A stretch of DNA of 64,000 nt from Candidatus Omnitrophota bacterium (lineage in GTDB: Bacteria > Omnitrophota > Gorgyraeia > JABMRG01). Positions 17,244 through 51,724 of this stretch are shown one piece after another. Both the position numbers and the translations under genes were made by a program. How positions within the stretch are numbered: position 1 is the stretch's first letter; every line of letters begins with the position of its first letter. The notes under the pieces are model-generated. The model made no database searches and had not been told where the DNA came from. It worked only from the letters and a program-made list of their open reading frames with translations. The DNA lies in assembly GCA_028716165.1 (NCBI GenBank), contig JAQUQI010000002.1:10431-74430 (forward strand). The letters are read 5' to 3'.

Positions 17244-17650
17244 AAGTCTGCGTTAACGAGATATTGAAAGACGGGCTGGACATAGAAAGGCATATAGAGG
17301 CGAGCTCACTCGGCATAGAGACCTCACAGATAACGTATCCTTGTCCGGTCACTGTCCGCGCGCATTTGGAAAGAGATGCCGATACGGTCCGCGCGTCTGT
17401 ATCAATATCGGCAAAAGCCCGCATGATATGCAGCAGATGCCTTGAGCAGTTTGATTTCAACATATCGCAAAAAGGGGATTTTATCTATGATACGGGCAAC
17501 GGGCATTTCATTGATTTGAGCGACGACATAAAAGATTCTATAATGCTGGGGTATCCTATGAGGCAGTTATGCCGCCCCGATTGCAAGGGCCTGTGCCATA
17601 AGTGCGGCGCTAACCTTAACCAGGATTCCTGCGGATGCGTTACGCGATAA
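17240..17650 (+). CDS. YceD/DUF177 family protein (large-ribosomal-subunit-associated, Cys-rich C-terminus)
   Basis: C-terminal CRPDCKGLCHKCGANLNQDSCGC. Probable GTG start overlapping the ackA stop, with GGAGC 9 nt upstream. The usual downstream rpmF-plsX-fabH genes are absent. Confidence 0.65.
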   Translation: MKVCVNEILKDGLDIERHIEASSLGIETSQITYPCPVTVRAHLERDADTVRASVSISAKARMICSRCLEQFDFNISQKGDFIYDTGNGHFIDLSDDIKDSIMLGYPMRQLCRPDCKGLCHKCGANLNQDSCGCVTR

Positions 17651-24838: not shown

Positions 24839-25603
24839 ATGGATAAAAATAAAGGATTAGCGGCAGGCCTTTTGCTTCTGGCCGCGCTGATTACGGCGCT
24901 GGGTTTATTCTTGTTTTCAGGTTCAAAAAAAGAATTAGCCTGCGCCAATTCTATTAAATTGCGTATTGATGCCGTAGTTGAAGAGCGCGCGCGCATAACG
25001 GGAAATATAGATATTCTCAATGGCCAGCGGGAAAGGCTCGTGCAGGATGTCCAGGATTACGGAGAAAAAATCAAAGCCCTTGAGAATGAGATACCTTCTG
25101 TTACGCAGGAAAGGGACAAGGCTCTGGCCATGCTTAGCGATGTGGAAAATGAGTTAGCGGAATTGAATCGTGCCCTTGAAGAAACAATTTCACAAGAAGC
25201 GGCCTTAAGGGATGAGCTGGAGAATGCCGGATTGACGCATAGAGACTTGCAGGACGCTCTTGAGTTTGCCGGCAGTGAGAAATTGGAACTTGAAGAAAGC
25301 CTGAAGGTCTGTATTCAACAGTCCCAAGGCGTTCAACTGCCCAAGATAATTGTCAAAGTCGCCAGGCCGTTAAACGGTGAAGTTGTGGAAGTAAGCGAAA
25401 AATACAATTTTTGTGTGATAGATTTAGGCAGTGGACAGGGGGTCAACAGCGGCGATACCCTGGAAATATACCGCGATAACCGTTTCATCGCCAAGGCGCT
25501 TGTTGAAAACGTTTATGATGACATGTCAAGCATAATCGTATTAGACCAATGGCGCGGTGTGAGCATATATACAGGTGATGCGGTAAAACTTCATAAAGTC
25601 TGA
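24839..25603 (+). CDS. Hypothetical membrane-anchored coiled-coil protein, paralog of the upstream ORF
   Basis: TM helix (GLAAGLLLLAALITALGLFLF), a coiled coil, and a C-terminal domain alignable with the preceding ORF (NFCVIDLGSGQGVNSGDTLEIYRDN...GDAVKL versus FAFLVTNLGKSSGIEEGLVLDIRRDN...GDKVFV). AGGAGA SD. Confidence 0.5.
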   Translation: MDKNKGLAAGLLLLAALITALGLFLFSGSKKELACANSIKLRIDAVVEERARITGNIDILNGQRERLVQDVQDYGEKIKALENEIPSVTQERDKALAMLSDVENELAELNRALEETISQEAALRDELENAGLTHRDLQDALEFAGSEKLELEESLKVCIQQSQGVQLPKIIVKVARPLNGEVVEVSEKYNFCVIDLGSGQGVNSGDTLEIYRDNRFIAKALVENVYDDMSSIIVLDQWRGVSIYTGDAVKLHKV

Positions 25604-28165: not shown

Positions 28166-28939
28166 GTGAAAATAAAAACACCCCTAATCTTTTTGATTAT
28201 CGGTTTATACTTGACGGTAATCTATTTATCCCCGCCCTTATACACGGACAGGCCTAAATTTCTATTTCTGAAAATTTCAAGCCTGCCCCTTAATCTTACC
28301 AGAAGCCTCATTAAAGAGGCCAGGTTTATCGTTAAATCCCGCGATATTATCAGAGAGAATGCTTCGCTTTATGATGCCGTCTCCAAGCTGACATCCCGGT
28401 TGAGTTTTTACAGGGATACAGAGGCTGAAAACGCGCGGCTTAGGTCCATGCTGGAGTTTAAGCAGAAAACCGGATTTAAACTTGTCCCCGCCGCAGTAAC
28501 CGCCGCCGATTCTTCCAACCTTTCCAGGACGATAGTTATAGACAAGGGCGCGTCCAGCGGTGTTAAGAGGGACACGGTGGTGATATCACAGGCCGGTTTG
28601 GCCGGCCGGGTCATAGACAGTTCTTCTAATATGAGCAGGGTAAGCCTTATAGTTGACCCTGTTTTTCGCGCCGGTTGTATTATATCAAGGTCCCGGCAGA
28701 TAGGTATTATTTACGGCGGGCATTCGGGCATGTGCATAATGCGGTATATACCGCTTGACGCTGATATAAAAGAAGGGGATGAAGTCCTGACATCAGGCTT
28801 CAGTGATGTCTATCCCAAGGGCCTTATGATAGGCACGGTATTGAAGGTGGTTAGAGAGCCCAGGGGTTTAAGCCTTTCGGCTGTTGTAAAACCGGCAACG
28901 GATTTTAACAGGCTTGAAGAGGTCCTATGCATAGAATAG
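28166..28939 (+). CDS. mreC: Rod shape-determining protein MreC
   Basis: TM anchor, a coiled-coil segment, and the beta-rich MreC core. Sits between mreB and mreD. Confidence 0.8.
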   Translation: MKIKTPLIFLIIGLYLTVIYLSPPLYTDRPKFLFLKISSLPLNLTRSLIKEARFIVKSRDIIRENASLYDAVSKLTSRLSFYRDTEAENARLRSMLEFKQKTGFKLVPAAVTAADSSNLSRTIVIDKGASSGVKRDTVVISQAGLAGRVIDSSSNMSRVSLIVDPVFRAGCIISRSRQIGIIYGGHSGMCIMRYIPLDADIKEGDEVLTSGFSDVYPKGLMIGTVLKVVREPRGLSLSAVVKPATDFNRLEEVLCIE

Positions 28940-29430
28940 GATATAAGCCGCTGATTTTTATGATTATAGCGGCAGGGCTGGCACAGGCGTCGTCTTTTGA
29001 TTATATAATATTTTCCGGGGCGAAGCCTGATATCCTGCTTATTTTAATCATATTTGCCTCATTATTGCTTGAAGGCCGTGATGTTATAAAATGCGCCGTA
29101 ATAGCGGGCATATTTAAGGATATGAGCTCATCATTAATTGCCGGCAGTCATGTGGCCGCGTTTATTCTTCTCGCGCTGGTTTTAAACACCCAGAAAAAAA
29201 AGTTTTACAGTCAAAAACCCCTGGTGCAGATAGGCTTAAGTTTTGTATCGTATATTTTCATGGATACCTGTGTTTTTATCCTAAACGCCATAGCGTATAG
29301 GCGTTCAGGCGTTCTTTGTTTTCCGGTTATGCCTATTTTGAAGGCGGCGGCGTATACCTGTATTGTATCGCCTGTAGTATTTGTTGTTGCCTCAAAGGTC
29401 CTGCGAATTGACCTCTCCAGGGCCTATTGA
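28927..29430 (+). CDS. mreD: Rod shape-determining protein MreD (polytopic membrane protein)
   Basis: 167 aa hydrophobic protein in the conserved position between mreC and mrdA. The call rests mainly on synteny. Confidence 0.55.
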   Translation: MHRIGYKPLIFMIIAAGLAQASSFDYIIFSGAKPDILLILIIFASLLLEGRDVIKCAVIAGIFKDMSSSLIAGSHVAAFILLALVLNTQKKKFYSQKPLVQIGLSFVSYIFMDTCVFILNAIAYRRSGVLCFPVMPILKAAAYTCIVSPVVFVVASKVLRIDLSRAY

Positions 29431-34221: not shown

Positions 34222-34677
34222 ATGGCAGTATCCGGTAAAAAAGGTTTTAGGTTTGTTAAAATTATGGTAATTGCCGGTATTGCGGCCCTGTTGTCAGCCG
34301 CAGTTCTTTTGGGTATTATGAAGTCAAAGCAGAGTATTAATGAAAAAAATGCCATAGCGTCATTAGCGCTGATACGTTCAGCCATGGAGAGTTTTCGCGC
34401 CGGGCAGACACCCCGGCTATATACAAATGCCGTTAATCTAAACGTTTTGTCAACAGCCAATCCACCCTATATTGGTACCGCGCTTGGTAGCGGGACAAAA
34501 CAGGGATATAATTTTCGTTTAGCCGATGTTACGGCTTATGCTTATACTATCCAGGCAAGGCCTGTCATGCCAAGGGTTACGGGCGGCAGGTCTTTTGTCC
34601 TTGATGAGACAGGCCTGCTAAGGGCCAGGCAGCAGTCCGATTGGCTTAAAAAAGGCCAAGGTGAGATTATTAAATAG
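34222..34677 (+). CDS. Hypothetical prepilin/pseudopilin-like protein
   Basis: N-terminus KKGFRFVKIMVIAGIAALLSAAVLLG resembles a class-III (type IV pilin) leader plus hydrophobic helix, but has Lys rather than Glu at +5. Strong SD (GGAGG) and its own TTGACA-17-TATGCT promoter. Confidence 0.3.
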   Translation: MAVSGKKGFRFVKIMVIAGIAALLSAAVLLGIMKSKQSINEKNAIASLALIRSAMESFRAGQTPRLYTNAVNLNVLSTANPPYIGTALGSGTKQGYNFRLADVTAYAYTIQARPVMPRVTGGRSFVLDETGLLRARQQSDWLKKGQGEIIK

Positions 34678-40711: not shown

Positions 40712-41296
40712 ATGCGCGTAGGAATATTCGGAGGCACATTCAACCCTGTGCATAAAGGCCATATTCTTTTGGCCCAACAGGCAAAAAAGATACTGAAACT
40801 GGATAAGGTGATCTTCGTTCCCGCGCGTGTCCCGCCCCACAAGGCCTCTGCAGGTATAATAGATTCCGCAAAGAGATTCCATATGATAAAACTTGCCATC
40901 GTCGGCAAAAGCGGATTCAAGATTTCTCGTTACGAGCTTGGCAAGAAAGGCAAAGCGTATTCAGTTGATACAGTCAGGCATTTCAGGAAAATATTGCCTA
41001 AAAAAACCAGGCTATATTTTTTAGCCGGAGCTGACATTATCAATAATGTTACATCCTGGAAGGAATCTAAAAAACTATTCGCGCTTTGTGATTTTATTAT
41101 TCTTAGCAGGAGCGGATTCGGGCTTGAAGCAAAAGGGGCGGGGTTTAAGATGTTGGATGCTAAAACATTGGATGTGTCATCAACTATGGTTCGCGGCCTG
41201 CTTCAAGAAAACAAGCCTGTCACAGGCCTTGTTCCAAGGCTTGTGGAGGATTATATTATTCGTAAAGGTTTATATAGGAAGGCCTCCGCCCTGTAA
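40712..41296 (+). CDS. nadD: Nicotinate-nucleotide adenylyltransferase
   Basis: MRVGIFGGTFNPVHKGHI, the (H/T)xGH nucleotidyltransferase motif. Confidence 0.85.
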   Translation: MRVGIFGGTFNPVHKGHILLAQQAKKILKLDKVIFVPARVPPHKASAGIIDSAKRFHMIKLAIVGKSGFKISRYELGKKGKAYSVDTVRHFRKILPKKTRLYFLAGADIINNVTSWKESKKLFALCDFIILSRSGFGLEAKGAGFKMLDAKTLDVSSTMVRGLLQENKPVTGLVPRLVEDYIIRKGLYRKASAL

Positions 41297-41462
41297 ACGT
41301 ATTATAATAACTCCCATTTTATCGTTGCCTGCCCAATATTATCAACTTTTTTAAGTTTTAAGATTTCGCGCGGTTTATTAACTTTTTTTAAAAAAACAAC
41401 AATTACTCTTTATCATATTTATTAATAATGATAAAATATAACATTATAACGCTGGAGACCGC

Positions 41463-42686
41463 ATGACATTGCGTAATTTAAAATTAAGTATATTTCTCGC
41501 GGCCAAAGACATGCTCAATAATCTTGGCTCGCTTGTATTTGTATCAGCGGCGCTGGGTTTCTTATTTGCCAATGTATTATTTTCAAGGTTTATGCTCTAT
41601 GGCTTTGAAAAGAGCATAGGAAGCCTTATACCGAAGGTTAGCGGTAATATGTATGCCACGCCCTTGAGAGGGCAATCCTATATATTTGACACGCAGAGGG
41701 TCCTGTCTTCAATAGGCTTAAATACTACGATAGGCGAGATGAGCCCTGTGCTTGAGATGCCTTGTGTTTTGGAATATAAGGGTTCCAGGATAGTTACCAT
41801 GGCCTGGGGGCTTGAATTCGGCGAGCAGGTCATGGATTTACAAAAACATATCGTTGAAGGCAGTTATTTTTCAGGCCCTGATTCAGAAGAGATAATATTG
41901 GGTAAGATACTGAAAAGGCGTTTCAAATTAAAAATACCCGTTACTGAAGAAATAACGCTTGGAGATTCCGCCAAAGGTATATTTATCAAGGAATATAATA
42001 TAGATAAATTCAATAAAGAGGTCTATAAAGATAAGTACGTGAAGATAACAGGAGTTGCCGATTTCAGAGATTATATAGCCAATAACAGCATTTTCATACC
42101 CTTGCAGACTTTAAGAAACGTTACTACGCTTCAAAACCGTTCATCAAGCGTGTTCATACGGCTCAAAGATGATATGAAAATTGACGAAGCAGGGGTCAAA
42201 CAGTATAAGCCTTATAATCTTGACGTGGAGTTAAAACACTGGAAAGACCGTGATGACTACGGAACTGACGACCTTGTCTACGGCTTTAACCTTATAAGCA
42301 TTATAACCTTTGGCGTGAGTATCATTTGCGCGGCTATATTAGTCGCGTTTATAGTTTTCTATAATACGCAAAAAAAACGAAGGACAACAGGCATACTCCG
42401 GGCCATAGGCATAAAGGGAAGGATATTTTTAACGTTCTTTATTATAGAAGGCGTTCTTTTCGCTGTGATAGGAGTTGTCACGGGGACGGCCCTTTATTAT
42501 TTACTGCAAACGTATCTTAAGGCGCATCCCATAATAATGCCTTTTGGAGATCTGTATCCTATGTTTGAGATAAACAGCTATATTTATGCTACCGCGCTTT
42601 TTTTAGTTGTGTCTTTTATGGCCAGCGTTTATTACGCGGTAAAAAGCGGTAAAGAAAATATAATAAAAGTAATAAGAGGCGATTAA
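41463..42686 (+). CDS. ABC transporter permease, FtsX/MacB/LolCE family
   Basis: TM1, a ~230 aa extracytoplasmic domain, and three C-terminal TM helices. The stop overlaps the start of the ATPase gene. GC noticeably lower than core genes. Confidence 0.75.
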   Translation: MTLRNLKLSIFLAAKDMLNNLGSLVFVSAALGFLFANVLFSRFMLYGFEKSIGSLIPKVSGNMYATPLRGQSYIFDTQRVLSSIGLNTTIGEMSPVLEMPCVLEYKGSRIVTMAWGLEFGEQVMDLQKHIVEGSYFSGPDSEEIILGKILKRRFKLKIPVTEEITLGDSAKGIFIKEYNIDKFNKEVYKDKYVKITGVADFRDYIANNSIFIPLQTLRNVTTLQNRSSSVFIRLKDDMKIDEAGVKQYKPYNLDVELKHWKDRDDYGTDDLVYGFNLISIITFGVSIICAAILVAFIVFYNTQKKRRTTGILRAIGIKGRIFLTFFIIEGVLFAVIGVVTGTALYYLLQTYLKAHPIIMPFGDLYPMFEINSYIYATALFLVVSFMASVYYAVKSGKENIIKVIRGD

Positions 42687-43393
42687 TGGTTAAAAAAGGG
42701 CCCAATTCCAAAAACAAGGTTATAATAAGCATAAAGAATCTGAAGAAAGACTATCATCTCGGTAATACCGTTGTCCAGGCGTTAAAAGACGTTAATCTTG
42801 AGATAAAAAGCGGCGAGTTTTCAATATTATTCGGCCCCTCGGGCAGCGGCAAAACCACGCTTTTAAACTTGTTAGGCCTTATAGATGTGCCTACCTGCGG
42901 CACGATTGTGCTGGACGGCCACGACACCGTTTCGCTTAATCGTATCCGGCGGGCGGAATTCAGGCTGAATAATATAGGCTTTATTTTTCAGAAATATTAT
43001 CTCCTTGATGAACTCACGGCGCTTGAAAATGTATTTTTGCCCGCTATTGCCAAGGAAGGGTATTCATCCCAGCTTTTGGCAAAGGCAAAGAGCATGCTTG
43101 AACTTGTCGGATTGAAGGAAAGGATGAGGCACAGGCCCGCCTATCTTTCAGAAGGCGAAAAACAGAGGGTAGCGGTTGCCAGAAGCCTCATTAACAGCCC
43201 CGCCATACTTCTCTGCGATGAGCCTACCGCCAGCCTTGACGCTGATAACGGGAGGGTGATACTTGACCTTTTGGCAAAGATAAACAAAGAAAGTTCTGCT
43301 ACCGTATTTCTTGTTACTCACGATGACCGCCAGCTCAAATACGGTGATAAGGTGATACACATCGCCGACGGGATGGTGCAAAAAGGGGAATAG
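42686..43393 (+). CDS. ABC transporter ATP-binding protein (MacB/LolD-like)
   Basis: Walker A (GPSGSGKTT), signature motif (LSEGEKQRV) and Walker B (ILLCDEPT). Confidence 0.85.
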   Translation: MVKKGPNSKNKVIISIKNLKKDYHLGNTVVQALKDVNLEIKSGEFSILFGPSGSGKTTLLNLLGLIDVPTCGTIVLDGHDTVSLNRIRRAEFRLNNIGFIFQKYYLLDELTALENVFLPAIAKEGYSSQLLAKAKSMLELVGLKERMRHRPAYLSEGEKQRVAVARSLINSPAILLCDEPTASLDADNGRVILDLLAKINKESSATVFLVTHDDRQLKYGDKVIHIADGMVQKGE

Positions 43394-43396
43394 GCT

Positions 43397-44629
43397 TTGG
43401 ATGATAAGAGGGTTGTAATTACCGGAATCGGATTAGTTACCCCAATTGGCATAGGCAAGGATATTTTTTGGGAAAATTGCTTGTCCGGAAAATCCAATGT
43501 TAAAAAAATAACCGCTTTTGATGTCAGCGAATATAACTGCAAGATAGCCTCCACGATAGATAGTTTTGACCCTGCCCGATATATGGATAAAATAATCGCA
43601 AGGCGCTCCGATAAATTCGCGCAGTTCGCCATTGCCGCCGCTTCTATGGCCATGGAAGACAGCCGTTTAAGCAATCCGGACCCAAAATACACAGGTGTTT
43701 GCATAGGCACAGGGCTGGGGGGCATGGTGTTCGCGGAAACGCAGATTGTTAATATCATAAAAGACGGAAATGGCGCGGTCAATCCTGTTTCTATCCCTAA
43801 GATTATGCCTAACTCTGTGGCAAACCAGATTGCCATTGTTCATAATGCCCAGGGCCCGAATCTTACTGTTTGCACAGCATGTTCGTCAGGCACGCATAGC
43901 ATAGGCCAGGCGTTTGATATTATCCGTCAGGGCAGAGCCAAGATTATGATTTCAGGAGGAGCGGATTCGCCTGTGATGAGATATAATTTTTTAGGTTTTG
44001 ATAAATTAAGCGTTATGAGCAGAAGAAATGACAGCCCGGAATCCGCCTCAAGGCCTTTTGATAAAGACAGAGACGGTTTTGTCATGGGAGAAGGGGCCGC
44101 TGTCCTGATACTTGAATCTTTAGACCATGCGCTCGCACGAAAGGCCGATATATATGCCGAGATCAAAGGTTATTCCATGACGTCAGGCGCCTATCATATT
44201 GTTATGCCGCGTCCTGATGCCAGCGATATAGCAAGGGCCATGAGAATATGCTTAAATGAGTCGCTTGTTATGCCAAAAGACGTTGATTATATAAACGCCC
44301 ACGGCACGGCTACTATTGCCAATGACAAGGCGGAAGCCAAAGCGATAGCCAAGATCTTTGGAGAACATGCCCAGCGCATACCGGTAAGTTCTACCAAATC
44401 CATGATAGGCCATACCTTAGGGGCGGCAGGGGCTATTGAAGCGGCCGTGTGCGCGTTGACGATATCGTCTGGTAAAATACACCCTACGGTGAATCTTGAA
44501 ACACCCGACGAGGATTGCAAGCTTAATCATGTTACGAAGAAACATTTTAAGCACGATGTAAGCATTGCTCTTTCAAATTCATTTGGGTTTGGCAACAATA
44601 ACGCGTGCCTGCTTTTTTCAAAAGTATAA
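43397..44629 (+). CDS. Beta-ketoacyl-[ACP] synthase, FabF/KAS-II-like elongating ketosynthase
   Basis: Active-site Cys (CTACSSG), His (NAHGTAT) and His (IGHTLGAAG), the C-H-H triad of elongating KSs. A 3-nt gap after the ABC ATPase stop suggests an operon. There are no fabD/fabG/fabH neighbours. Confidence 0.85.
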   Translation: MDDKRVVITGIGLVTPIGIGKDIFWENCLSGKSNVKKITAFDVSEYNCKIASTIDSFDPARYMDKIIARRSDKFAQFAIAAASMAMEDSRLSNPDPKYTGVCIGTGLGGMVFAETQIVNIIKDGNGAVNPVSIPKIMPNSVANQIAIVHNAQGPNLTVCTACSSGTHSIGQAFDIIRQGRAKIMISGGADSPVMRYNFLGFDKLSVMSRRNDSPESASRPFDKDRDGFVMGEGAAVLILESLDHALARKADIYAEIKGYSMTSGAYHIVMPRPDASDIARAMRICLNESLVMPKDVDYINAHGTATIANDKAEAKAIAKIFGEHAQRIPVSSTKSMIGHTLGAAGAIEAAVCALTISSGKIHPTVNLETPDEDCKLNHVTKKHFKHDVSIALSNSFGFGNNNACLLFSKV

Positions 44630-44649
44630 GAGAAAGGACACTATTTTTA

Positions 44650-44913
44650 ATGGATAATAGTAAGAAATTTTCAAAATGCGAAATAGCCGAAGAATTAAAA
44701 AAAATTATTGCAGATATAGTAAATGTAGAAAAAGAAGCGATTGATTTTACAACAAAATTGTTGGAAGATCTTGGAATGGATTCTTTTGCTGTAGCCGAGA
44801 CTATGTTTTTAATCCAAGAAAAATTCGGAGTCACCATAGCTCAAGAAGATATACTTAAAGTAGATACTTTTAATAGTCTTGTAGAAACGTTGGATAAGAT
44901 TTTAAATGGTTGA
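44650..44913 (+). CDS. Acyl carrier protein
   Basis: 87 aa acidic protein with the phosphopantetheine-attachment motif LGMDSFAVAE (an Asp-Ser-Phe variant of DSL). Start at the ATG at 44650 after AAAGGA. Very AT-rich. Confidence 0.7.
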   Translation: MDNSKKFSKCEIAEELKKIIADIVNVEKEAIDFTTKLLEDLGMDSFAVAETMFLIQEKFGVTIAQEDILKVDTFNSLVETLDKILNG

Positions 44914-44957
44914 GGGGTATAGAATATTATTAGTCAATGTGAGGCAACCATAAGATG

Positions 44958-44986
44958 CCAGGGTGAGGCCCTGGTATTTTGTTTTT
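44958..44986 (+). terminator. Putative intrinsic terminator or attenuator between the ACP gene and the HMGR-like gene
   Basis: Stem CCAGGG (44958-44963), loop TGAGG, stem CCCTGG (44969-44974), followed by TATTTTGTTTTT. Confidence 0.35.
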
Positions 44987-45006
44987 AATTTATATTGGAG
45001 GTACCA

Positions 45007-46200
45007 ATGAACGCTGCAATAGATAATAATAAAAAAAGTTGTAATGATAATATGTTGAGTAATTTTTCTGAATTGAAAAAAATTCAAGTAAGACGTGACC
45101 AGCTACAGAAAAATACAAATATGGTTTTATCAGAGATTACAAAAACACATTTTGATTTATCACATGTTAGCAATTATATTGAAAACATGATAGGTGTATG
45201 CAATGTTCCTTTAGGAGTAGCGGGTCCGATACAAATAAATGGAGATTTTGCTAATGGTAAATTCTATGTTCCATTTGCAACTACACAATCAACTCTAATA
45301 CGTTCTTATGATAGAGGTATGAAGGTTCTTACTGCATCAGGTGGAGTCAATACAAAGATCATTAAAGATGAAATTCACATTTCACCAGTTTTCTGCTTTT
45401 CGAATCTGAAAGAAGCAAAAAATTTCTATAATTGGTCAATTGAGAATTTTGAACTGCTTAAAAAAGAAGCGGAAAGTGTTACTACCCATGGCAAGTTATT
45501 ACGTATAAAACCTGTAATATTAGGAAGAAAGGTTATATTAACGTTATATTTTTCAACGCAGGATGCTATGGGGTTGAATATGATTGTTATAGCAGCGGAT
45601 AAGTTGTGCCGCTATATTTCTAAAAATATACAAGTCAGAAAGTATTATTTACGTTCAAATTATTCAGCCGACAAGAAACCGTCATATTTGAATTTTATTG
45701 AAGGTTATGGAAAAACAGTTGTTGTCGAAGCTACTATAGCAAAACAAATTATAGAAGGTTATCTACAGACATCCGCAAAAGAACTTTATGATTTTTGGAT
45801 TACAAGTGTTATCTGCGGTATTCAATCTGGATTGATGGGTTTGAACGCTCATTTTGCTAATGGTCTATCTGCTATTTTTTTAGCTTGCGGACAAGACATT
45901 GCCAGTGTTGTTAATGCTTGCTTAGGCATTGGAACTATTGAAATTGAAGATAATGGAGATTTGTATATTTCTGGGCGCATATCGTCATTACCTATAGGTA
46001 CTGTAGGTGGTGCTACCGATTTAGGCACACAAAAAGAATGTTTGCAAATTATGGATTGTTTTGGTAACGGAAAAACTAATCGTTTGGCTGAGATTATATC
46101 AGCTACTTTAGTTGCAGGAGAGATTTCTATTGTTTCAGCAATTGCGACTGGAAATTTTGCTTCGGCACATATCAATGCTAGGTTAAAAAAGGGAAAATAA
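45007..46200 (+). CDS. Soluble class-I HMG-CoA-reductase-fold protein with non-canonical active-site residues
   Basis: Class-I HMGR blocks: ENMIGVCNVPLGVAGP, TQDAMGLNMI, ACGQD, PIGTVGGAT, and a C-terminal AGEISIVSAIATG. Strong GGAGG SD. However TTQS replaces the catalytic TTEG, and GN replaces the catalytic GH. Confidence 0.75.
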   Translation: MNAAIDNNKKSCNDNMLSNFSELKKIQVRRDQLQKNTNMVLSEITKTHFDLSHVSNYIENMIGVCNVPLGVAGPIQINGDFANGKFYVPFATTQSTLIRSYDRGMKVLTASGGVNTKIIKDEIHISPVFCFSNLKEAKNFYNWSIENFELLKKEAESVTTHGKLLRIKPVILGRKVILTLYFSTQDAMGLNMIVIAADKLCRYISKNIQVRKYYLRSNYSADKKPSYLNFIEGYGKTVVVEATIAKQIIEGYLQTSAKELYDFWITSVICGIQSGLMGLNAHFANGLSAIFLACGQDIASVVNACLGIGTIEIEDNGDLYISGRISSLPIGTVGGATDLGTQKECLQIMDCFGNGKTNRLAEIISATLVAGEISIVSAIATGNFASAHINARLKKGK

Positions 46201-46203
46201 GAC

Positions 46204-47481
46204 GTGATTAAATCTAGTGCTGAAGTTATAATTGTTGGTTCTGGAGCAGCCGGCTCAACTATTGCTAAGGAACTGGCCGGTCGCGGTAGAAAAATTATTA
46301 TAATTGAAAAAGGTAAATTTGCAGGTTATCTTGGCAACGAGATTAGGGCCAGCGCGTACTACGAAGGTTCTCCTTTGCTCGTTAGGTCTAAGAGCGGTGT
46401 GATGTTCCATTATACAAAAAATCTTGGTGGTAGCACAGTTTTTAGTTGTGGAAATGCTGTTAGAGGTTCACTAGATATATTTTTACGGTTTGGTATAGAT
46501 TTACGTCGCGAGCTTGCGGAGACTGAAGAGGAATTATCGGTAATGCCTGTAGATAAAAAATTAATTGGCCAGAAAGGTACCAAAGATTTTTATGATGCAG
46601 CTATTAATTTGGGTTATAAGATTGATTATATGCCGAAATTTATGAAAAAAGGGATGTGTTCTCTGTGTGGCAAATGCGTGCTAGGGTGTCCAAATAATGC
46701 TAGATGGACTGCTGTTGATTATGTTGATTTTGCTATTGGGAAAGGTGCTCTTGTTGAGCACGCCGTTGTAGAAAAGGTTATTATAAAAAATAATAAAGCC
46801 ATTGGTGTTTTAGCTAAACAGGGAAAAAAACAGGTAACTATTTATGCTGATAAAATCGTGCTTGCGGCAGGAGGGCTTAATTCACCCGTGATACTACAAA
46901 AGTCTGGCTTATCTGCTGGTAAGAAATTGTTTTGTGATTTGTTCAATGTAACATATGCTGTGTCATTGAAAGATGGAATGTTTCGTGATTTAAGTATGTC
47001 TTTAGTTGATATGGAATTTTTTAAAAATGATGGTTTTATAATATCTCCATTTATGGATCCTATTATTTTATTTCTTATCATTTTTAATAAGTTTTTGCCA
47101 TTTTATTTATTGAAGTATAAAAATGTTGTTGGCATAGAAGTTAAGATTAAGGATGATATGATTGGATCGGTTTCATCGGATGGGCGAATCCAAAAAATAG
47201 TTACTGCCGATGATTCAAAAAAAATTAGTAAGGGTGTAGAAATTGCTAAGGATATTTTAAACCATATGCCTATTGATAAAAGGACGATTAATACAACTAT
47301 ATTGCGAGGCGCGCATCCTGGCGGTACTTCTGCTATTGGGGAAGTTGTTGATTGTAATTTGCAAACAGGGGTGAAAGGGTTATATGTATGTGATGCTAGT
47401 GTATTACCAGAAGCGTTAGGCCTGCCACCAATAATAACGCTAATTGCTTTATCTAAATGGTTTGTTAAAACTCAATTTTAA
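46204..47481 (+). CDS. GMC-family-like FAD-dependent oxidoreductase with an inserted CX2CX2CX3CP ferredoxin-type motif
   Basis: N-terminal FAD Rossmann (IIVGSGAAGSTIA...IIIEKG). C-terminal GMC-type block (RGAHPGGTSAIGEVVDCNLQTGVKGLYVCDASVLP). Cys cluster CSLCGKCVLGCP at aa 152-163. GTG start 3 nt after the HMGR-like stop. Confidence 0.6.
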   Translation: MIKSSAEVIIVGSGAAGSTIAKELAGRGRKIIIIEKGKFAGYLGNEIRASAYYEGSPLLVRSKSGVMFHYTKNLGGSTVFSCGNAVRGSLDIFLRFGIDLRRELAETEEELSVMPVDKKLIGQKGTKDFYDAAINLGYKIDYMPKFMKKGMCSLCGKCVLGCPNNARWTAVDYVDFAIGKGALVEHAVVEKVIIKNNKAIGVLAKQGKKQVTIYADKIVLAAGGLNSPVILQKSGLSAGKKLFCDLFNVTYAVSLKDGMFRDLSMSLVDMEFFKNDGFIISPFMDPIILFLIIFNKFLPFYLLKYKNVVGIEVKIKDDMIGSVSSDGRIQKIVTADDSKKISKGVEIAKDILNHMPIDKRTINTTILRGAHPGGTSAIGEVVDCNLQTGVKGLYVCDASVLPEALGLPPIITLIALSKWFVKTQF

Positions 47482-47485
47482 AATT

Positions 47486-49537
47486 ATGCCATATTTTGCA
47501 ATATCAGCTATTACAGCGTCATTGATTAATATCATTATCGGCACATTTGTTCTATTAAAAGACAGAAGATGCCTGCAGAATAGGACATATTCAGGTGTTT
47601 CATTTGCTGTCGCAATATGGTGTCTTGGATTAGCTAATATGGTTAATTCGACTAACAGCTGCGAAGCTTTTTTTTGGGTAAGATTTTTACATATAGGAGT
47701 TTTTTTAATCCCCCCACTTTATTTTAATTTTATTTGTTCTTTGTTGCATATTGTTGACTATAAAAAAAGTTTACTTATTTCCATGTATATTATTTCAACT
47801 TGTTTTATTTTGTTTAATTATGGGACACGTTTATTAATTTCTGATGTTGTTCCAAAATATAGTTTTAATTATTATGCTACTGCTGGATCTGTGTATTTTT
47901 TATATATATTGTATTTAACTGGTTTTATTATATATTCAATTATTCTTATTATGAAACATTATAAGAGTTTTTCTGCTTTACGAAAAATGCAGTTCAAGTA
48001 TGTAATAGTTGCTTCTATCGTAGCGTTTATAGGGGGGTCAGATACTTTTTTACCAATGTTTGATTTGCCAGTCATGATTAATGGTATTTTTTTATTGCCA
48101 CTTTTTACGCTTATGGCTGCTTATGTTATTGTTAAGCATAGATTTTTGGACATTGAAATCATAATCCGCGAGACGGCAATATTCGCGGGTATATTCGGTT
48201 TTTCAATAGGCCTGTTTATGCTGGCGATTATAGCGGGCGAACAATTCCTCAAGCCTTATATAGGCGATAACCGTTGGATCGTCCCGGCATTATCACTCTT
48301 ACTTGTCACGTTTGTTATCCGCCCAATTGAAAAAATTATATACAATGTTGCCGGTAGGATATTATTTCGCAGAAAGTATGAATATCAAAAGACCCTTCAG
48401 GACGCCGCTGAAGGCATGTCTAAGATCCGTGACCCAAAGAAATTGTTGAGCCTGATAGTGCATATAATATCAGCTAAGCTCAAGCTTGTTAATACTGCTG
48501 TTTTTCTCTTTGAAAGCGGATCCGCTTCGTACGTTCTGAAGGCTTCAAGAGGGGATATGGGGAGCTCTCCGGCAAGCTTAAAGCCCGAAAACGCTCTGAT
48601 AACATGGCTTTGCGAGAAGAAAAAACCGCTTGGCCTTGATGATGTTCAGAAATGGATAAACAATTTTAACCAGAAATACATGCCCGGCGTGCTTAAGTCC
48701 GATCTGGCCCAGATAAGGGACACTATGCTTAATCAACGCGCGGCCTTGAGCGTGCCTTGTTTTTTTAGAAACGAGCTTTTAGGCGTGCTTATACTTGGAG
48801 AGAAAAAAAACGGAGATTTTTTTTCCCAGGATGATATAGATTTATTCAGCGCTCTATCCAATGAAGCGGCCATTGCTCTCAAAAATTCACAACTCTATTT
48901 TGAGATAGACAGAAGGGCTTTTGAGCTTGAGAACCTTTACAAGAGAGAGCACAGGCTGTTTATGCATTCATCCGTGGCGTTTGCCGCGGCAATAGATGCC
49001 AGAGATCCTTATACCCACGGCCATTCGCAAAGGGTCACAAATATAAGCCTGGTGATACTTGATTTTATGGGAGCTATGGATGAGATAGATAAAGATGCTT
49101 TCTTCAGGCATAGGCTGCAAATAACAGGGGTCTTGCATGATATAGGAAAGATAGGCGTACCCGATGATATATTGCATAAACCGGCGCAGCTTACGCCCGA
49201 AGAGAGAAAAGAGATAGAGAAACACCCCGTATTGGGGGCGGAAATTGTATCTCATATTGCCGGGCTAAGAAACCTTATCGGAGGCATCAAATATCATCAT
49301 GAAAGATATGACGGCAAAGGCTACCCCGAAGGGCTTAAGTCGGATGAGATACCTCTGATGGCAAGGATTATTTCCGTTGCCGACACTTATGATGCCATGA
49401 CAAGCGACAGGCCTTATAGGAAAGGCCTCCCGTTTTTGACGGCAAGAGACGAAATACAAAGAAACGCGTCGGCGCAGTTTGACCCTTATGTGGTAGCGGC
49501 TTTTTTAAAAGCATTTGAACAGGGTAAGATAGAATAA
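47486..49537 (+). CDS. Membrane sensor HD-GYP phosphodiesterase (7TM receptor-like domain, GAF, HD-GYP)
   Basis: Polytopic N-terminus, a GAF-like middle region, and an HD-GYP domain (HGHSQR, LHDIGKIG, HHERYDGKGYPEGL). Roughly the first 225 codons are strikingly AT-rich and the remainder is at host GC. Confidence 0.8.
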   Translation: MPYFAISAITASLINIIIGTFVLLKDRRCLQNRTYSGVSFAVAIWCLGLANMVNSTNSCEAFFWVRFLHIGVFLIPPLYFNFICSLLHIVDYKKSLLISMYIISTCFILFNYGTRLLISDVVPKYSFNYYATAGSVYFLYILYLTGFIIYSIILIMKHYKSFSALRKMQFKYVIVASIVAFIGGSDTFLPMFDLPVMINGIFLLPLFTLMAAYVIVKHRFLDIEIIIRETAIFAGIFGFSIGLFMLAIIAGEQFLKPYIGDNRWIVPALSLLLVTFVIRPIEKIIYNVAGRILFRRKYEYQKTLQDAAEGMSKIRDPKKLLSLIVHIISAKLKLVNTAVFLFESGSASYVLKASRGDMGSSPASLKPENALITWLCEKKKPLGLDDVQKWINNFNQKYMPGVLKSDLAQIRDTMLNQRAALSVPCFFRNELLGVLILGEKKNGDFFSQDDIDLFSALSNEAAIALKNSQLYFEIDRRAFELENLYKREHRLFMHSSVAFAAAIDARDPYTHGHSQRVTNISLVILDFMGAMDEIDKDAFFRHRLQITGVLHDIGKIGVPDDILHKPAQLTPEERKEIEKHPVLGAEIVSHIAGLRNLIGGIKYHHERYDGKGYPEGLKSDEIPLMARIISVADTYDAMTSDRPYRKGLPFLTARDEIQRNASAQFDPYVVAAFLKAFEQGKIE

Positions 49538-49603: not shown

Positions 49604-51724
49604 ATGTGTTATTACAAGCTGCATTATATAGCAGGTTCCGTGTTTACGCTTCTTATTACCCTTCTGCTGGGAAGCCTGATCTATTTTAGAGGCAGAAGGG
49701 GCGAGGTTGTGAGAAGTTACTACCTGTTAATGCTTTCCATCGCGGAATTTTCATTGTGCACTTTATTGTTCTGCTTGTTTAATGATAAAGACTATACCCT
49801 GTTTTTCGCCAGGGCCTCTTATATAGGGGTTTCCTTTGTGCCCATATTTTATTTTCATTTTATTATAAAACTTATGGGGTTGACAGAAAAGATCAAAAGG
49901 GTCCTGTCTGCCGGTTATATTCTGGCGGTTATTTTTTCCGGGTTGAGTTTTTCACCGTTAATCGTTAAAAGTATATCGTTCAAGCTGGGCCTGAATTTTA
50001 ATGATCCCGGCGTGCTTCATCCCGTATTTATGTTGTTTTTTGCCGGGTTCCCCGCTTACGCGCATTATCTCATGGGCAGGTCTATCGGCAGGTTAAGCGA
50101 TATAGGCAAACGCCAAATGAAGTATGTCACGATAGCCGGCATATGCGGCCTAAGCGGCGGCAGTTTAATGTTTTTTACGGTTTACGGTGTATCTATTCCC
50201 ATAATAGGGCCTATGGCCTTATACTTTGTCGCTCTTGCCAATCTCTTTGTTGCTATAGCAACGTATGTGGTACGCCTTATGGGTGTTGAGGTCATAAGGA
50301 GAAGGACGCTGATATTTTCAATTCTCTATGGAGCGAGTGTCGGCAGTTTTGTAGCGTTTGTTTTTATCCTGCAAAGACATTTATCAGCTTCTTTTAATGT
50401 GAACAGATGGATACTGCCTGTGGCCGCGGTTTTTATTTTGACAGTTTTTATAAGGCCGTTAGAAAAATTTCTTGCCGGATTTACCGACGCGTTTTTATAC
50501 CAGCGCGGATACGACTATATGCTGGTTTTAAGAAACGTCGCCAAAGGTATGACGCTTATAACCGATACAAGAAAACTCCTGAACCTTATGGTAAGGTTTA
50601 TATCAAAAGAAGTAAGGATAACCGGCAGTTCGGCTTATATTTTCAATAAAACGCTGAATTCATATATCAGGGAAGTCCGCAGAGGTTTTAAAGGCCAGCA
50701 GACCCTGGAAAGAGTGGATGCCGACAACCCTCTTGTTAAATGGCTTATGGAAAAAAGAGAGCCTATAAGTTATGAAAGTGTTTTAAGCTGGATCCAGGGC
50801 GACAGGATTTTTCCGCAGAGGATTATTCTTAAAAAGACTCTTGACCATATCCGGGTGACCATGGAAAAGACCGGTGCCGTATTATGCGTTCCGAGTTTTT
50901 TAAGAGGCCAGATGATCGGTTTTATAGTGCTTGGCCCTAAGCTATCGGGCAATATCTATACGAGCGATGATTTTTCACTTTTATCCACCCTGGCCAATAA
51001 TGCGGCTATTGCCTTTGAGAACGCGCGCATGTATGAAGAGCTTACGGAAAGAATATATAAATTAGACGCTTTATATAAAGAAGAGCACGCGTTGTTTTTG
51101 GACGCGGCCTCGGCATTTAGCTTTGCTATTGATTCCAAGGACGGGTATACCTATGCCCATACCCGCAGATTAAGCAATTACGCGATGGCTACGGCCAAGG
51201 AACTTGAAAAACTTTTGCCGTATATTAACTTTAATGATTCTTTTTACGAGACGCTTCATATCGCGTCACTTTTACATGATGTGGGCAAGATAGGTATACC
51301 GGACAGGATACTAAAAAAACGTTCGGCCCTGACAGACGAAGAAAAGGAAAAATTCAAAGAGCATGTTACTATAGGCCAAAATATCTTAAAGCCCATTAAA
51401 GAAATAGGAGACAGCTTTGATGTTATACGGCACCATCATGAAAACTTTGACGGCACAGGCTATCCCGACGGATTAAAAGGCAATGCTATACCCATGGCGT
51501 CCCGCATTATAGCGGTTTGCAATGGCTTTGACATTATGACTTCAACCTATCTGGAAGGCGAGCCTGTTACCAGACAGCAGGCCATAGAAAAGCTTAAGGA
51601 AAAAAGCGGGAGCTTTTTTGACCCCGTGATAGTTGACGCTTTTATTGCCGCTTATGCAAACAAGGAATATGCCGGATTTTTTCTTGATATACCCACTGAT
51701 AGCGTTAAAAACCGGACATTTTAA
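49604..51724 (+). CDS. Membrane sensor HD-GYP phosphodiesterase, paralog
   Basis: Same architecture as the upstream gene (AHTRRL, LHDVGKIG, HHHENFDGTGYPDGL). GC is uniform and host-like. Confidence 0.8.
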   Translation: MCYYKLHYIAGSVFTLLITLLLGSLIYFRGRRGEVVRSYYLLMLSIAEFSLCTLLFCLFNDKDYTLFFARASYIGVSFVPIFYFHFIIKLMGLTEKIKRVLSAGYILAVIFSGLSFSPLIVKSISFKLGLNFNDPGVLHPVFMLFFAGFPAYAHYLMGRSIGRLSDIGKRQMKYVTIAGICGLSGGSLMFFTVYGVSIPIIGPMALYFVALANLFVAIATYVVRLMGVEVIRRRTLIFSILYGASVGSFVAFVFILQRHLSASFNVNRWILPVAAVFILTVFIRPLEKFLAGFTDAFLYQRGYDYMLVLRNVAKGMTLITDTRKLLNLMVRFISKEVRITGSSAYIFNKTLNSYIREVRRGFKGQQTLERVDADNPLVKWLMEKREPISYESVLSWIQGDRIFPQRIILKKTLDHIRVTMEKTGAVLCVPSFLRGQMIGFIVLGPKLSGNIYTSDDFSLLSTLANNAAIAFENARMYEELTERIYKLDALYKEEHALFLDAASAFSFAIDSKDGYTYAHTRRLSNYAMATAKELEKLLPYINFNDSFYETLHIASLLHDVGKIGIPDRILKKRSALTDEEKEKFKEHVTIGQNILKPIKEIGDSFDVIRHHHENFDGTGYPDGLKGNAIPMASRIIAVCNGFDIMTSTYLEGEPVTRQQAIEKLKEKSGSFFDPVIVDAFIAAYANKEYAGFFLDIPTDSVKNRTF

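Follow-up and report, generated by a model that had tools for sequence, protein, structure and literature searches.

The locus at positions 41463-44913 of a Candidatus Omnitrophota contig, within the 64-kb stretch of DNA analysed here (the window), contains densely packed genes for a permease, an ATPase, a FabF-type ketosynthase (KS), and an acyl carrier protein (ACP) (Table 1). On the 3' side they are followed by genes for a protein with an HMG-CoA reductase (HMGR) fold, a GMC flavoprotein, and two 7TM-GAF-HD-GYP proteins. All coordinates and spacings given in a previous, sequence-only reading were borne out on recheck: the permease and ATPase genes share 1 nt (TAATG), the ATPase stop codon (TAG) and the KS start codon are separated by 3 nt, and the ATG of the ACP gene follows the KS stop after 20 nt. 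Tight packing continues beyond position 44913, with 3 nt between the HMGR and GMC genes and 4 nt between the GMC gene and the ATG of the first sensor gene; the real HMGR start is probably ATG 45007.

Table 1 Features of the locus and of its downstream neighbours
Feature	Position	Strand	Basis
AT-rich intergenic stretch 3' of nadD; RBS and promoter-like hexamers	41297..41462	+	Consensus matches only
FtsX-family ABC permease, 407 aa	41463..42686	+	Pfam FtsX, 41.6 bits
ABC ATPase, 235 aa; Walker A GPSGSGKT, signature LSEG, Walker B DEPT	42686..43393	+	Pfam ABC_tran
FabF-type elongating KS, 410 aa, TTG start	43397..44629	+	TIGR03150, 527.5 bits (cut-off 493.75)
Swapped low-GC segment: ACP, HMGR, GMC, 7TM domain of sensor 1	44636..48081	+	blastn breakpoints
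Dedicated ACP, 87 aa; phosphopantetheine Ser45 in DSF motif	44650..44913	+	PP-binding, 47.3 bits
Terminator-like hairpin with U tract, between ACP and HMGR	44950..44982	+	Folding of spacer
HMGR-fold protein, 397 aa, class I type	45007..46200	+	Pfam HMG-CoA_red, 359 bits
Compact GMC-family FAD oxidoreductase, 425 aa	46204..47481	+	GMC_oxred_N and GMC_oxred_C domains
Sensor 1: HisKA_7TM input, GAF, HD-GYP c-di-GMP phosphodiesterase domain	47486..49537	+	Domain search, motifs
Sensor 2: second 7TM-GAF-HD-GYP protein, 87% identical to its counterpart in the sister genome	49604..51724	+	Domains, motifs

The region following nadD is likely the start of the transcription unit, with a putative promoter recognised by consensus matches alone. 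The spacer between the ACP and HMGR genes (44914-45010) folds with a ΔG of -32.2 kcal/mol (z -3.9), and none of 200 shuffled sequences was equally stable; because of this strong hairpin, the genes from HMGR onward may form a transcript partly separate from that of the ACP side. The adjacency of the genes is not by chance, since their order is kept in other genomes. In agreement with the previous reading, which had seen no fab neighbours, a Pfam search of the large + strand ORFs of the 64-kb window, covering most of those with 120 aa or more, yielded housekeeping families only and no fab, MEP, or mevalonate families. The yceD gene (17192-17650) was likewise without its usual neighbours and is flanked by ackA and a gene of the PNP_UDP_1 phosphorylase superfamily. 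The window also contains lgt and lspA.

The KS aligned to FabF of B. subtilis (4LS5, E=1.5e-121) and, as had been noted, retains an intact Cys-His-His triad formed by Cys163 (TACSSG), His303 (NAHGT), and His340 (GHTLGAAG). It grouped with KS fused to REC or PilZ and with the KS of further stand-alone KS-ACP pairs, and 17 of its 120 top relatives carry a REC or PilZ domain. The ACP scored below every NCBIfam ACP cut-off and showed a median identity of 29% (maximum 36.5%) to the AcpP proteins of a control set of 80 FabF loci. An ACP gene was located 5' of the KS gene in 47 of these control loci and 3' of it in none, whereas it was 3' of the KS gene in 7/7 cassettes of the type described below. 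This order and the low identity to AcpP (about 29%) uphold the view that the pair is specialised and not a housekeeping fabF/acpP. NodE/NodF and AcpXL/FabF-XL of rhizobia are also stand-alone FabF-type KS with their own ACP, in which the other steps of fatty acid synthesis are borrowed and the product is a special acyl chain. Unlike the window cassette, they serve Nod factor or lipid A acyltransferases, are not known to have an adjoining release enzyme or sensor, and are arranged as ACP-KS instead of KS-ACP.

The HMGR-fold protein matched the structure 6HR7 (E=1e-87), shared about 45% identity with an archaeal HMGR, and retained the catalytic residues E559, K691, D767, and H866 as well as the DAMG and GTVGG motifs. 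However, its score against TIGR00533 (341.8 bits) did not reach the cut-off (441.8), and it carries the substitutions S684R and K735Q. These two positions, which contact the HMG carboxylate in human HMGR structures, are invariant in the archaeal enzymes, whereas the clade of the window protein mostly has R or K at 684 and varies at 735. PilZ or REC domains were present in 24 of the 120 top HMGR relatives, and the REC domain of REC-HMGR proteins is 45-49% identical to that of REC-KS proteins. A 7TM sensor gene was located 3' of HMGR in 10/18 loci of the window's clade D1 and, with the window counted, in 11/12 loci of subclade D1a, compared to 0/31 in the Acidobacteriota clade D2, 0/11 in the archaeal set, and 1/21 and 2/80 in two further sets, the matches in both of these being weak. 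The GMC protein has a CxxCxxCxxxCP motif at aa 152-163; its gene is also found 3' of a 75%-identical HMGR in L087 and is missing from the remaining HMGR cassettes. We infer that it provides an accessory redox step.

Comparison with the sister genome L091 revealed an exchange of part of the locus, which is otherwise present there at about 90% protein identity (flanking proteins 82-91%). The blastn homology stopped at 44635 and restarted at 48082, and the replaced segment has a GC content of 0.29-0.36 compared to about 0.45 in its flanks. Its counterpart in L091 encodes another ACP, a hotdog thioesterase of the 4HBT_2 family, and another 7TM domain. The ACP, encoded by the first gene of the segment, is 34% identical between the two genomes, in contrast to about 90% for the flanking proteins, and residues 1-233 of sensor 1 are 7-45% identical compared to 67-100% (mostly 85% or more) in the remainder. 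L003 and L093 form another syntenic pair that differs by HMGR versus thioesterase. ACP, release enzyme, and 7TM input together make up one swappable unit, which the sequence-only reading had missed.

The order KS, ACP, release enzyme, and HisKA_7TM sensor was found in the window, L091, L003, L089, L092, L093, and L176. Between ACP and sensor is a slot that is filled by HMGR in the window and L003, a YbgC/FadM-like hotdog thioesterase in L091, L093, and L176, an acyl-ACP-reductase/PigE-like protein in L092 and in a second module of L176, and a thioester-reductase SDR plus HMGR in L089. All of these enzymes cleave thioesters. This recurring context corroborates the idea that KS, ACP, and the HMGR-fold protein act in one pathway, and we propose that the latter is an NAD(P)H-dependent reductase releasing the acyl thioester. 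The same reaction, in which NAD(P)H reduces a thioester on a carrier to an aldehyde or alcohol, is known from cyanobacterial acyl-ACP reductase (AAR), the terminal R domains of PKS/NRPS, and the N-terminal domain of PigE; relatives of such chain-releasing reductases fill the slot in sibling cassettes, but they have Rossmann SDR or AAR folds, wholly different from the HMGR fold. HMGR with a 7TM sensor and without KS and ACP was found in L088, L007, L090, L071, and L008. The HMGR-fold enzyme can thus work without this ACP, perhaps acting on acyl-CoA.

The 7TM input of sensor 1 comprises about aa 1-233 (nt 47486-48184), and its HD-GYP domain has the motifs HDIGK and HHERYDGKGYP. When compared among cassettes, the 7TM domains clustered by partner enzyme and not by lineage: those of the thioesterase type are 44-53% identical among themselves and 18-29% identical to the HMGR type. 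The identity of the window domain to its positional orthologue is only 25%, compared to 33% with HMGR-linked sensors from both a further Omnitrophota genome and Planctomycetia, and 31% with those from Spirochaetales. Of all neighbours, the sensor is the best conserved across phyla, with an input domain that changes along with the enzyme. This wiring to signalling, through 7TM-GAF-HD-GYP or histidine-kinase sensors and through PilZ/REC fusions, had also escaped the previous reading.

Hydropathy of the permease indicated one N-terminal TM helix, an extracytoplasmic domain of about 235 aa, and three C-terminal TM helices, which is a MacB/LolC-like type VII topology. Its orthologues are 91% (L091) and 79% (L176) identical. 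It scored 56.8 bits against the lolCE model (cut-off 362), and its top PDB match was LolF, with an E value of only 1e-3. The ATPase scored 216.7 bits against the LolD model (cut-off 307.75) and was below the equivalog cut-offs of LolD, DevA, and FtsE, with DevA as the second-best model. MacB, LolCDE, and DevBCA likewise combine an FtsX-domain permease bearing an extracytoplasmic domain with a separate ATPase; unlike them, the window pair is strongly divergent in sequence, falls under every curated cut-off, and has no membrane-fusion protein or LolA-type partner gene nearby. DevBCA exports fatty-alcohol-based glycolipids, and MacB-type ABC pumps are exporters of lipids and antibiotics. Three related Omnitrophota genomes (the window, L091, and L176) have the pair together with the system, in two arrangements, while other lineages have the same cassette without it and with FadL (L071, L008) or MMPL (L090) genes beside the module instead. 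The suggestion of a small specialised lipid pathway with a dedicated export step stands in part: KS and ACP are specialised, HMGR is included, and the ABC pair probably exports the cassette product, but because the pair is missing from the cassettes of other lineages, export is plausible without being a core feature. An earlier analogy with aryl-polyene clusters fails, as the cassette lacks a KS/CLF pair, a KR, and a DH.

We consider it somewhat more probable than the opposite (about 0.55) that the genes at 41463-44913 make up the upstream half of a modular cassette for a lipid signal, whose product is built, released, and read by a sensor that tunes c-di-GMP. For its chemistry, for the pairing of ligand and receptor, and for export, we infer the following. 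The KS would condense an acyl primer with malonate on the dedicated ACP, with housekeeping FabD and possibly FabG/Z/I lent in trans, giving an acyl- or 3-oxo/3-hydroxyacyl-S-ACP. The thioester would be freed by whatever enzyme occupies the ACP-sensor slot; in the window, the HMGR-fold enzyme with NAD(P)H would turn it into an aldehyde or alcohol, whose oxidation state would be adjusted by the GMC/Fe-S flavoprotein. The matched HisKA_7TM input of the adjoining GAF-HD-GYP protein would read the hydrophobic product, altering c-di-GMP hydrolysis, and the FtsX/ABC pair would probably pull the product out of the inner membrane.

We found no description of this cassette in the searchable literature. 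It resembles the DSF/Rpf system (RpfF, RpfC, RpfG) of Xanthomonas and Burkholderia, in which a fatty-acyl-ACP intermediate is also freed as a lipid signal, a polytopic membrane input reads it, and an HD-GYP c-di-GMP phosphodiesterase is the output, as proposed here. For DSF, FadL is perhaps involved in uptake, and the efflux route is not established (PMC4504480). Unlike DSF/Rpf, the window cassette has no RpfF-type crotonase, a dedicated KS and ACP supply the thioesterase or reductase in these cassettes, the HisKA_7TM-GAF sensor often bears HD-GYP itself instead of passing phosphate, as a kinase, to a REC-HD-GYP protein, and cassette enzymes can bear PilZ or REC domains. In CqsA/CqsS and LqsA/LqsS, the gene for the synthase of a hydrophobic signal also adjoins that of a polytopic membrane sensor, and in the agr and comQXP pherotype loci the signal-specifying genes and the receptor input co-diversify among close relatives while the flanks are conserved, as here; the enzymes and signals of these four systems are different (a PLP-dependent synthase, or peptides).

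Several points weigh against this reading. The KS scores as a FabF equivalog and could just elongate normal fatty acids, and the 7TM domain and the enzyme may be inherited together because they dock physically or are simply linked, and not because a ligand is recognised. Moreover, the HMGR-sensor cassettes mentioned above have no KS or ACP, the ABC pair is specific to its lineage, and the hairpin 3' of the ACP may separate the transcripts. A tentative alternative is membrane-lipid remodelling, in which the cassette would make an envelope-lipid building block (for instance an unusual fatty acid, a fatty alcohol, or a diol), the 7TM-GAF sensors would watch the membrane state and adjust the pathway via c-di-GMP or a phosphorelay, and the ABC pair would carry the lipid to the outer membrane. 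The FabF-like KS and the REC and PilZ fusions, which make KS and HMGR regulated outputs, agree with such a role, as do the lpxD-lpxC/fabZ-lpxA-lpxI genes directly 5' of the L089 cassette, the MGDG synthase and lipid A acyltransferase-like genes following that of L093, and the PlsC-type acyltransferase added in related Acidobacteriota clusters. However, an exchange of acid for alcohol head group together with the sensor input between sister genomes would be unexpected for a structural lipid, the cassette is small, with a single KS, ACP, and release enzyme, and most cassettes, including that of the window, have no acyltransferase or glycosyltransferase.

It is improbable that the genes make a specialised metabolite (for instance an antibiotic or surfactant) with its own exporter beside unrelated HD-GYP sensors: despite the dense packing of exporter, KS, and ACP, the substrates of MacB-type pumps, and the DevA match, most cassettes have no exporter, and the sensor is the best-conserved neighbour and co-varies with the enzyme in its input domain. 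Even less probable is a true mevalonate-pathway HMGR placed by chance beside a second fabF/ACP. The protein has the fold and length of class I HMGR (6HR7 of Methanothermococcus thermolithotrophicus, human 1DQ8), an intact catalytic tetrad, and an HMGR annotation in public records, but it differs in its substituted carboxylate contacts and sub-cut-off score, the 64 kb contain no further mevalonate gene, a thioesterase takes its site in the sister genome, and its clade is specifically tied to 7TM sensors, KS/ACP, and PilZ/REC. Ordinary LolCDE-type lipoprotein release beside a housekeeping fabF/acpP, which had been offered as LolFD next to a second fabF, was rejected: although LolCE and LolD are the best, if weak, models for the pair, lgt and lspA lie in the window, and the KS exceeds the fabF cut-off, the permease reaches about 57 of 362 bits, the ATPase also falls short, the LolF match is marginal, and the ACP is distant from AcpP, varies between sister genomes, and lies 3' of the KS.

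The PilZ and REC fusions make the enzymes signalling outputs, and with respect to these fusions a homeostatic membrane-lipid circuit fits as well as an autoinducer.

The genes from nadD to the second of two 7TM-GAF-HD-GYP sensors were closely packed and all lay on the forward strand. Rechecking coordinates, gaps, and motifs upheld in every detail the layout that the sequence-only reading had described at 41463-44913, namely an FtsX/ABC exporter pair followed by a stand-alone ketosynthase (KS) and an acyl carrier protein (ACP). The Cys-His-His triad of the KS, the serine of the ACP, the Walker motifs of the ATPase, and the HD and GYP motifs of both HD-GYP domains were intact. By Pfam annotation, the other large forward-strand ORFs belonged to housekeeping families only, and the ORFs annotated in the 64-kb window included no member of a fab, MEP, or mevalonate family. 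No tRNA was found in the window, and Rfam searches of the window and its leader regions matched neither a riboswitch nor any known RNA. All family-matched ORFs of at least 120 aa across 1-64000 were on the forward strand, and minus-strand ORFs, listed down to 60 aa only within 36-52 kb, looked spurious; the GC skew was positive over the whole window, and the co-oriented stretch was unusually long. Four ORFs matched no Pfam family at the thresholds applied.

Features of the locus and window ORFs without a Pfam match
Feature	Position	Strand	Remarks
nadD	40712-41296	+	NCBIfam equivalog
AT-rich spacer, 166 bp	41297-41462		promoter-like hexamers
FtsX-family permease	41463-42686	+	Pfam FtsX
ABC ATPase	42686-43393	+	1-nt overlap with permease gene (TAATG)
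FabF-type KS	43397-44629	+	TTG start, 3 nt past ATPase stop
ACP	44650-44913	+	begins 20 nt past KS stop
ACP-HMGR spacer, 93 nt	44914-45006		hairpin and U tract, 44950-44982
HMG-CoA-reductase-fold protein	45007-46200	+	start from public gene call P0001
GMC-family flavoprotein	46204-47481	+	3-nt gap after HMGR; CxxCxxCxxxCP motif
Sensor 1, 7TM-GAF-HD-GYP	47486-49537	+	4-nt gap after GMC gene
Sensor 2, 7TM-GAF-HD-GYP	49604-51724	+	
cvpA, NIF3, dnaG, rpoD	from 51808	+	
ORF without Pfam match	24036-24836		266 aa
ORF without Pfam match	24839-25603		254 aa
ORF without Pfam match	28927-29430		167 aa; after mreC, possibly mreD
ORF without Pfam match	34222-34677		151 aa

The closest relative of the window KS (89% identity) was found in L091, a locus of another Omnitrophota genome (GCA_041650035.1) that is syntenic with the window. 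The permease (91%), the ATPase (90%), sensor 2 (87%), CvpA (82%), and NIF3 (88%) were conserved between the two genomes, whereas the ACPs shared 34% identity, and the place of the HMG-CoA-reductase-fold (HMGR) protein and the GMC flavoprotein was taken in L091 by a 136-aa hotdog thioesterase (4HBT_2). Sensor 1 was itself divided, with 7-45% identity over residues 1-233, which form the 7TM domain, versus 67-100%, mostly 85% or more, over residues 234-683. Nucleotide homology ended at 44635, just past the KS stop, and returned at 48082, within sensor 1; the replaced segment (44636-48081) is the low-GC stretch of the window. These breakpoints, together with the identity pattern, show that one unit, made up of ACP, release enzyme, and sensor input domain, was exchanged, while the KS and the signaling body of the sensor stayed in place. 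The strong 15-bp hairpin with its U tract is inside the swapped segment (spacer 44914-45010, ΔG -32 kcal/mol, z -3.9), and L091 has a gap of only 3 nt between the ACP and the next gene. The hairpin might act as a terminator or attenuator, or be a scar of recombination, and it may split the transcript after the ACP gene.

Related arrangements were found elsewhere. In a more distant syntenic pair of loci, L003 and L093, an HMGR and a thioesterase occupied the same site. In a third genome, L176, whose KS was 76% identical to that of the window, the order was REC, KS, ACP, thioesterase, 7TM-GAF-histidine kinase, and REC, followed by orthologues of the window permease and ATPase (79%), QueC-like and acyl-ACP-reductase-like proteins, and an orthologue of sensor 1 with a 58% identical C-terminal part. 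The order KS, ACP, enzyme X, HisKA_7TM sensor recurred across loci, the sensor output domain being either HD-GYP or a histidine kinase. The X slot held a YbgC/FadM-like thioesterase in L091, L093, and L176, an acyl-ACP-reductase/PigE-like protein in L092, a thioester-reductase-type SDR plus an HMGR in L089, and an HMGR alone in the window and L003. All occupants belong to families that cleave thioesters, by hydrolysis or reduction, and this is what chiefly leads us to propose reductive release of the acyl chain by the HMGR-fold protein.

A small excisionase/MerR-like HTH_17 gene headed five cassettes (L088, L003, L089, L092, and L093; 34-75% identity between loci), and none was present in the window. 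A REC protein of about 300 aa preceded the HMGR or the KS (58% identity between L088 and L176). The L089 cassette, which lies directly after lpxD-lpxC/fabZ-lpxA-lpxI and a GAF-ANTAR gene, carried a 228-aa KS fragment (9254-9940) between the thioester-reductase SDR and the HMGR. Another stand-alone KS-ACP pair, on a 2.15-Mb Omnitrophota contig (L094/L095), was part of a different cluster of MarR, MFS-acyltransferase, hydrolase, hexapeptide transferase, AMP-binding enzyme, KS, ACP, an unknown protein, and a B12-radical SAM enzyme.

Both window sensors contained an HD_5 domain with HD and HHExxDGxGYP motifs (HDIGK and HHERYDGKGYP in sensor 1, HDVGK and HHENFDGTGYP in sensor 2). The 7TM domain alone gave no match in a word-indexed homologue search, and an exhaustive HMMER search was used to collect its relatives. 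Clustered at 50% identity, the publicly available HisKA_7TM (PF16927) sequences form about 4,150 clusters. Among the top 69 relatives of the sensor 1 domain, 46 were histidine kinases, three were HD-GYP proteins, and none was an enzyme-7TM fusion. One W, one G, and three Y residues were near-invariant in these 69 members, and obvious catalytic polar residues were absent; many of the best relatives (P0241-P0390) had two tandem HisKA_7TM stretches per protein. In a comparison of about 15 sensors, the 7TM domains clustered by partner enzyme and not by lineage or output domain: thioesterase-linked domains shared 44-53% identity with each other and 18-29% with HMGR-linked ones. The window domain was 33% identical to those of the HMGR-linked sensors of L089 (Omnitrophota) and of a Planctomycetia genome, 31% to that of a Spirochaetales HMGR-linked sensor, and just 25% to its positional orthologue in L091.

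Signaling domains were also fused to the enzymes themselves. An N-terminal signaling domain was present in 24 of the best 120 HMGR relatives (PilZ in 20, REC in 4), and 17 of the best 120 KS relatives carried one (REC in 16, PilZ in 1); the REC domains of REC-HMGR and REC-KS proteins were 45-49% identical. In two Anaeromyxobacter loci (L001/L002), a PilZ-HMGR fusion occurred without a 7TM sensor, and an HDOD-HD protein was encoded on the other strand, two genes further downstream.

The gene layout with its intact motifs, the recurring cassette, the modular swap, and the signaling-domain fusions are shown by the sequences, whereas the mechanism is a proposal. We propose that the KS and ACP, with FabD and perhaps FabG/Z/I acting in trans, would produce an acyl- or 3-oxo/3-hydroxyacyl-ACP, and that the HMGR-fold enzyme would reduce its thioester to an aldehyde or alcohol. 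The usual substrate of HMGR is likewise a 3-hydroxyacyl thioester. The GMC/Fe-S flavoprotein may then change the oxidation state of the product, which would enter the membrane and be read by the matched 7TM domain, altering HD-GYP activity and c-di-GMP. The PilZ and REC domains on related enzymes would close a feedback loop, and the FtsX/ABC pair would probably extract the product from the membrane. There is a substantial chance that the cassette represents a new class of lipid signaling system. At a probability of about 0.3, it would belong to a widespread and previously undescribed class of bacterial lipid-autoinducer systems in which the KS and ACP make the chain, an interchangeable thioesterase, HMGR-fold, or AAR-like enzyme sets the head group, and the ACP, enzyme, and 7TM domain form a "dialect" module exchanged between close relatives, with c-di-GMP or phosphorelay output feeding back on REC- or PilZ-fused KS and HMGR. 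A homeostatic membrane-lipid circuit would fit the PilZ and REC fusions equally well, and some loci have lpx, MGDG-synthase, or acyltransferase neighbors that favor it; however, it explains less well why head-group chemistry and receptor are swapped together between sister genomes.

A genuine role in the mevalonate pathway is unlikely for the window HMGR, because the protein is swapped for a thioesterase in the sister genome. The fold is clear (Pfam HMG-CoA_red, 359 bits; match to 6HR7, E=1e-87), and the four catalytic residues (Glu, Lys, Asp, and His) were kept here and in all aligned relatives. The protein scored 341.8 bits against the TIGR00533 equivalog, under the cut-off of 441.8. At the positions of human S684 and K735, which we take to hold the HMG carboxylate, the window protein has R and Q; its clade has mostly R or K at 684 and is variable at 735, and both residues were invariant in the archaeal enzymes (11/11). 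A tree built from 80 genome loci placed the window protein in a bacterial clade, D1, apart from the genuine archaeal HMGRs. A HisKA_7TM sensor gene directly followed the HMGR gene in 10 of 18 D1 loci and, with the window added, in 11 of 12 loci of subclade D1a. The corresponding counts were 0/31 for the Acidobacteriota clade D2, 0/11 for archaeal loci, and 1/21 (weak) for other bacterial loci; among control FabF loci, such a sensor was found in 2/80 (weak). HMGR-sensor pairs lacking both KS and ACP also exist, with a FadL-type outer-membrane channel upstream in L071 and L008 and an MMPL gene nearby in L090.

The adjacent flavoprotein is a predicted GMC family member with the N-terminal FAD-binding motif (GMC_oxred_N, 72.2 bits; GMC_oxred_C, 39.1 bits; both over cut-offs). 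It is compact (425 aa) and carries a ferredoxin-type CxxCxxCxxxCP insert at residues 152-163 (46657-46692); the HMGR-GMC pair was also present in L087.

Two further HMGR-fold clades had conserved neighborhoods of their own. The second (F684, E690, R692) occurred in a separate cluster of Acidobacteriota, Thermoanaerobaculia, and Poribacteria (L019, L021, L025, L026, L032, L033, L037, L040, L043, L051, L055, and L079) that combined a KS, a second, CLF-like KS, and the HMGR, with no 7TM sensor. Only part of these loci had an ACP (detected in L025, L033, L037, L051, and L055), an amine-oxidase-type flavoprotein, a PlsC acyltransferase, or an ABC1 kinase. This cluster connects the HMGR fold with KS/ACP genes independently and possibly represents a fatty-alcohol or ether-lipid route. 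The third clade, with E at position 684, came from Bacteroidota, Verrucomicrobiota, and others (L036, L041, L060, L061, L062, L069, L072, L073, and L076), and its conserved neighbors were a PPDK_N/PEP-utilising protein, DUF3419, and a UbiA-family prenyltransferase.

A housekeeping FabF/AcpP pair was rejected. The KS did exceed the fabF equivalog cut-off (TIGR03150, 527.5 bits; cut-off 493.75), and its triad was located at C163, H303, and H340 by alignment to 4LS5. However, the usual FabF context, a fab operon with acpP directly upstream, was not found among the annotated ORFs: the window ACP gene lay downstream of the KS. Cassette loci had the ACP in this position in 7/7 cases, versus immediately upstream in 47/80 and downstream in 0/80 control FabF loci. 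These controls came from a metagenome scan with the KS and are generic FabF (42-49% identity), which swamped the scan because the pattern FDKDRDGF is universal. In a neighbor-joining tree, the window KS shared a clade with KS proteins that stand alone beside an ACP and with REC- or PilZ-fused ones, and Firmicutes-type FabF fell outside it. The ACP scored 40.6 bits against TIGR00517 (cut-off 70.45) and missed all curated ACP cut-offs, the best NCBIfam model giving 50.3 bits versus 72. Its median identity to control AcpPs was 29%, compared with 61% among the controls themselves. The ACPs did not group by release-enzyme type, and that of the window was an outlier, 31-37% identical to all others.

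LolCDE lipoprotein release was likewise rejected, the permease (56.8 bits; lolCE cut-off 362.45) and the ATPase (216.7 bits; LolD cut-off 307.75) falling below both cut-offs and LolF, the nearest solved structure to the permease, matching at only E=1e-3. With these scores and the divergent ACP, the alternative of a LolFD pair next to a second fabF, raised in the sequence-only reading, was abandoned. The pair has the features of type VII (MacB-like) ABC systems: an FtsX domain, one TM segment, an extracytoplasmic domain, and three TM segments in the hydropathy profile, and an ATPase with intact motifs encoded by a separate, overlapping gene. No membrane-fusion protein or periplasmic partner was found at 40-53 kb of the window. 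The analogy to aryl-polyene clusters was dropped because only one KS, and no CLF, KR, or DH, is encoded in the window.

All parts of the cassette come from known families, and its logic has precedents. The closest is DSF signaling, where a multi-TM input domain senses a fatty acid derived from acyl-ACP and output runs through the HD-GYP protein RpfG (PMC4504480). The crotonase-type synthase RpfF of that system is, however, absent from the cassette and from the annotated ORFs of the window. Synthase genes and the receptor input domain co-diversify in the agr and comQXP pherotype loci, as they do in the cassette. In the literature searched, we found no description of a cassette combining a KS and ACP with a release enzyme and a HisKA_7TM sensor, of an HMGR-fold chain-release enzyme, or of PilZ- or REC-fused HMGR or KS, the PilZ query being swamped by the author name Pilz.

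On the autoinducer reading, this would also be the first case in which an HMG-CoA reductase fold reduces thioesters on a carrier protein and is controlled directly by c-di-GMP. If the proposal is correct, the fold would have a role beyond isoprenoid metabolism, as a reductase that releases acyl thioesters and is fused directly to PilZ or REC. The allele swap between sister genomes would constitute a natural experiment; with conserved flanks and differing chemistry and receptor domain, heterologous specificity tests would be straightforward to design. The uncharacterised HisKA_7TM family would gain a candidate ligand source and a testable ligand-receptor pairing, and lipid synthesis would be coupled to c-di-GMP in little-studied phyla such as Omnitrophota, Planctomycetota, Elusimicrobiota, Nitrospirota, and Spirochaetota.
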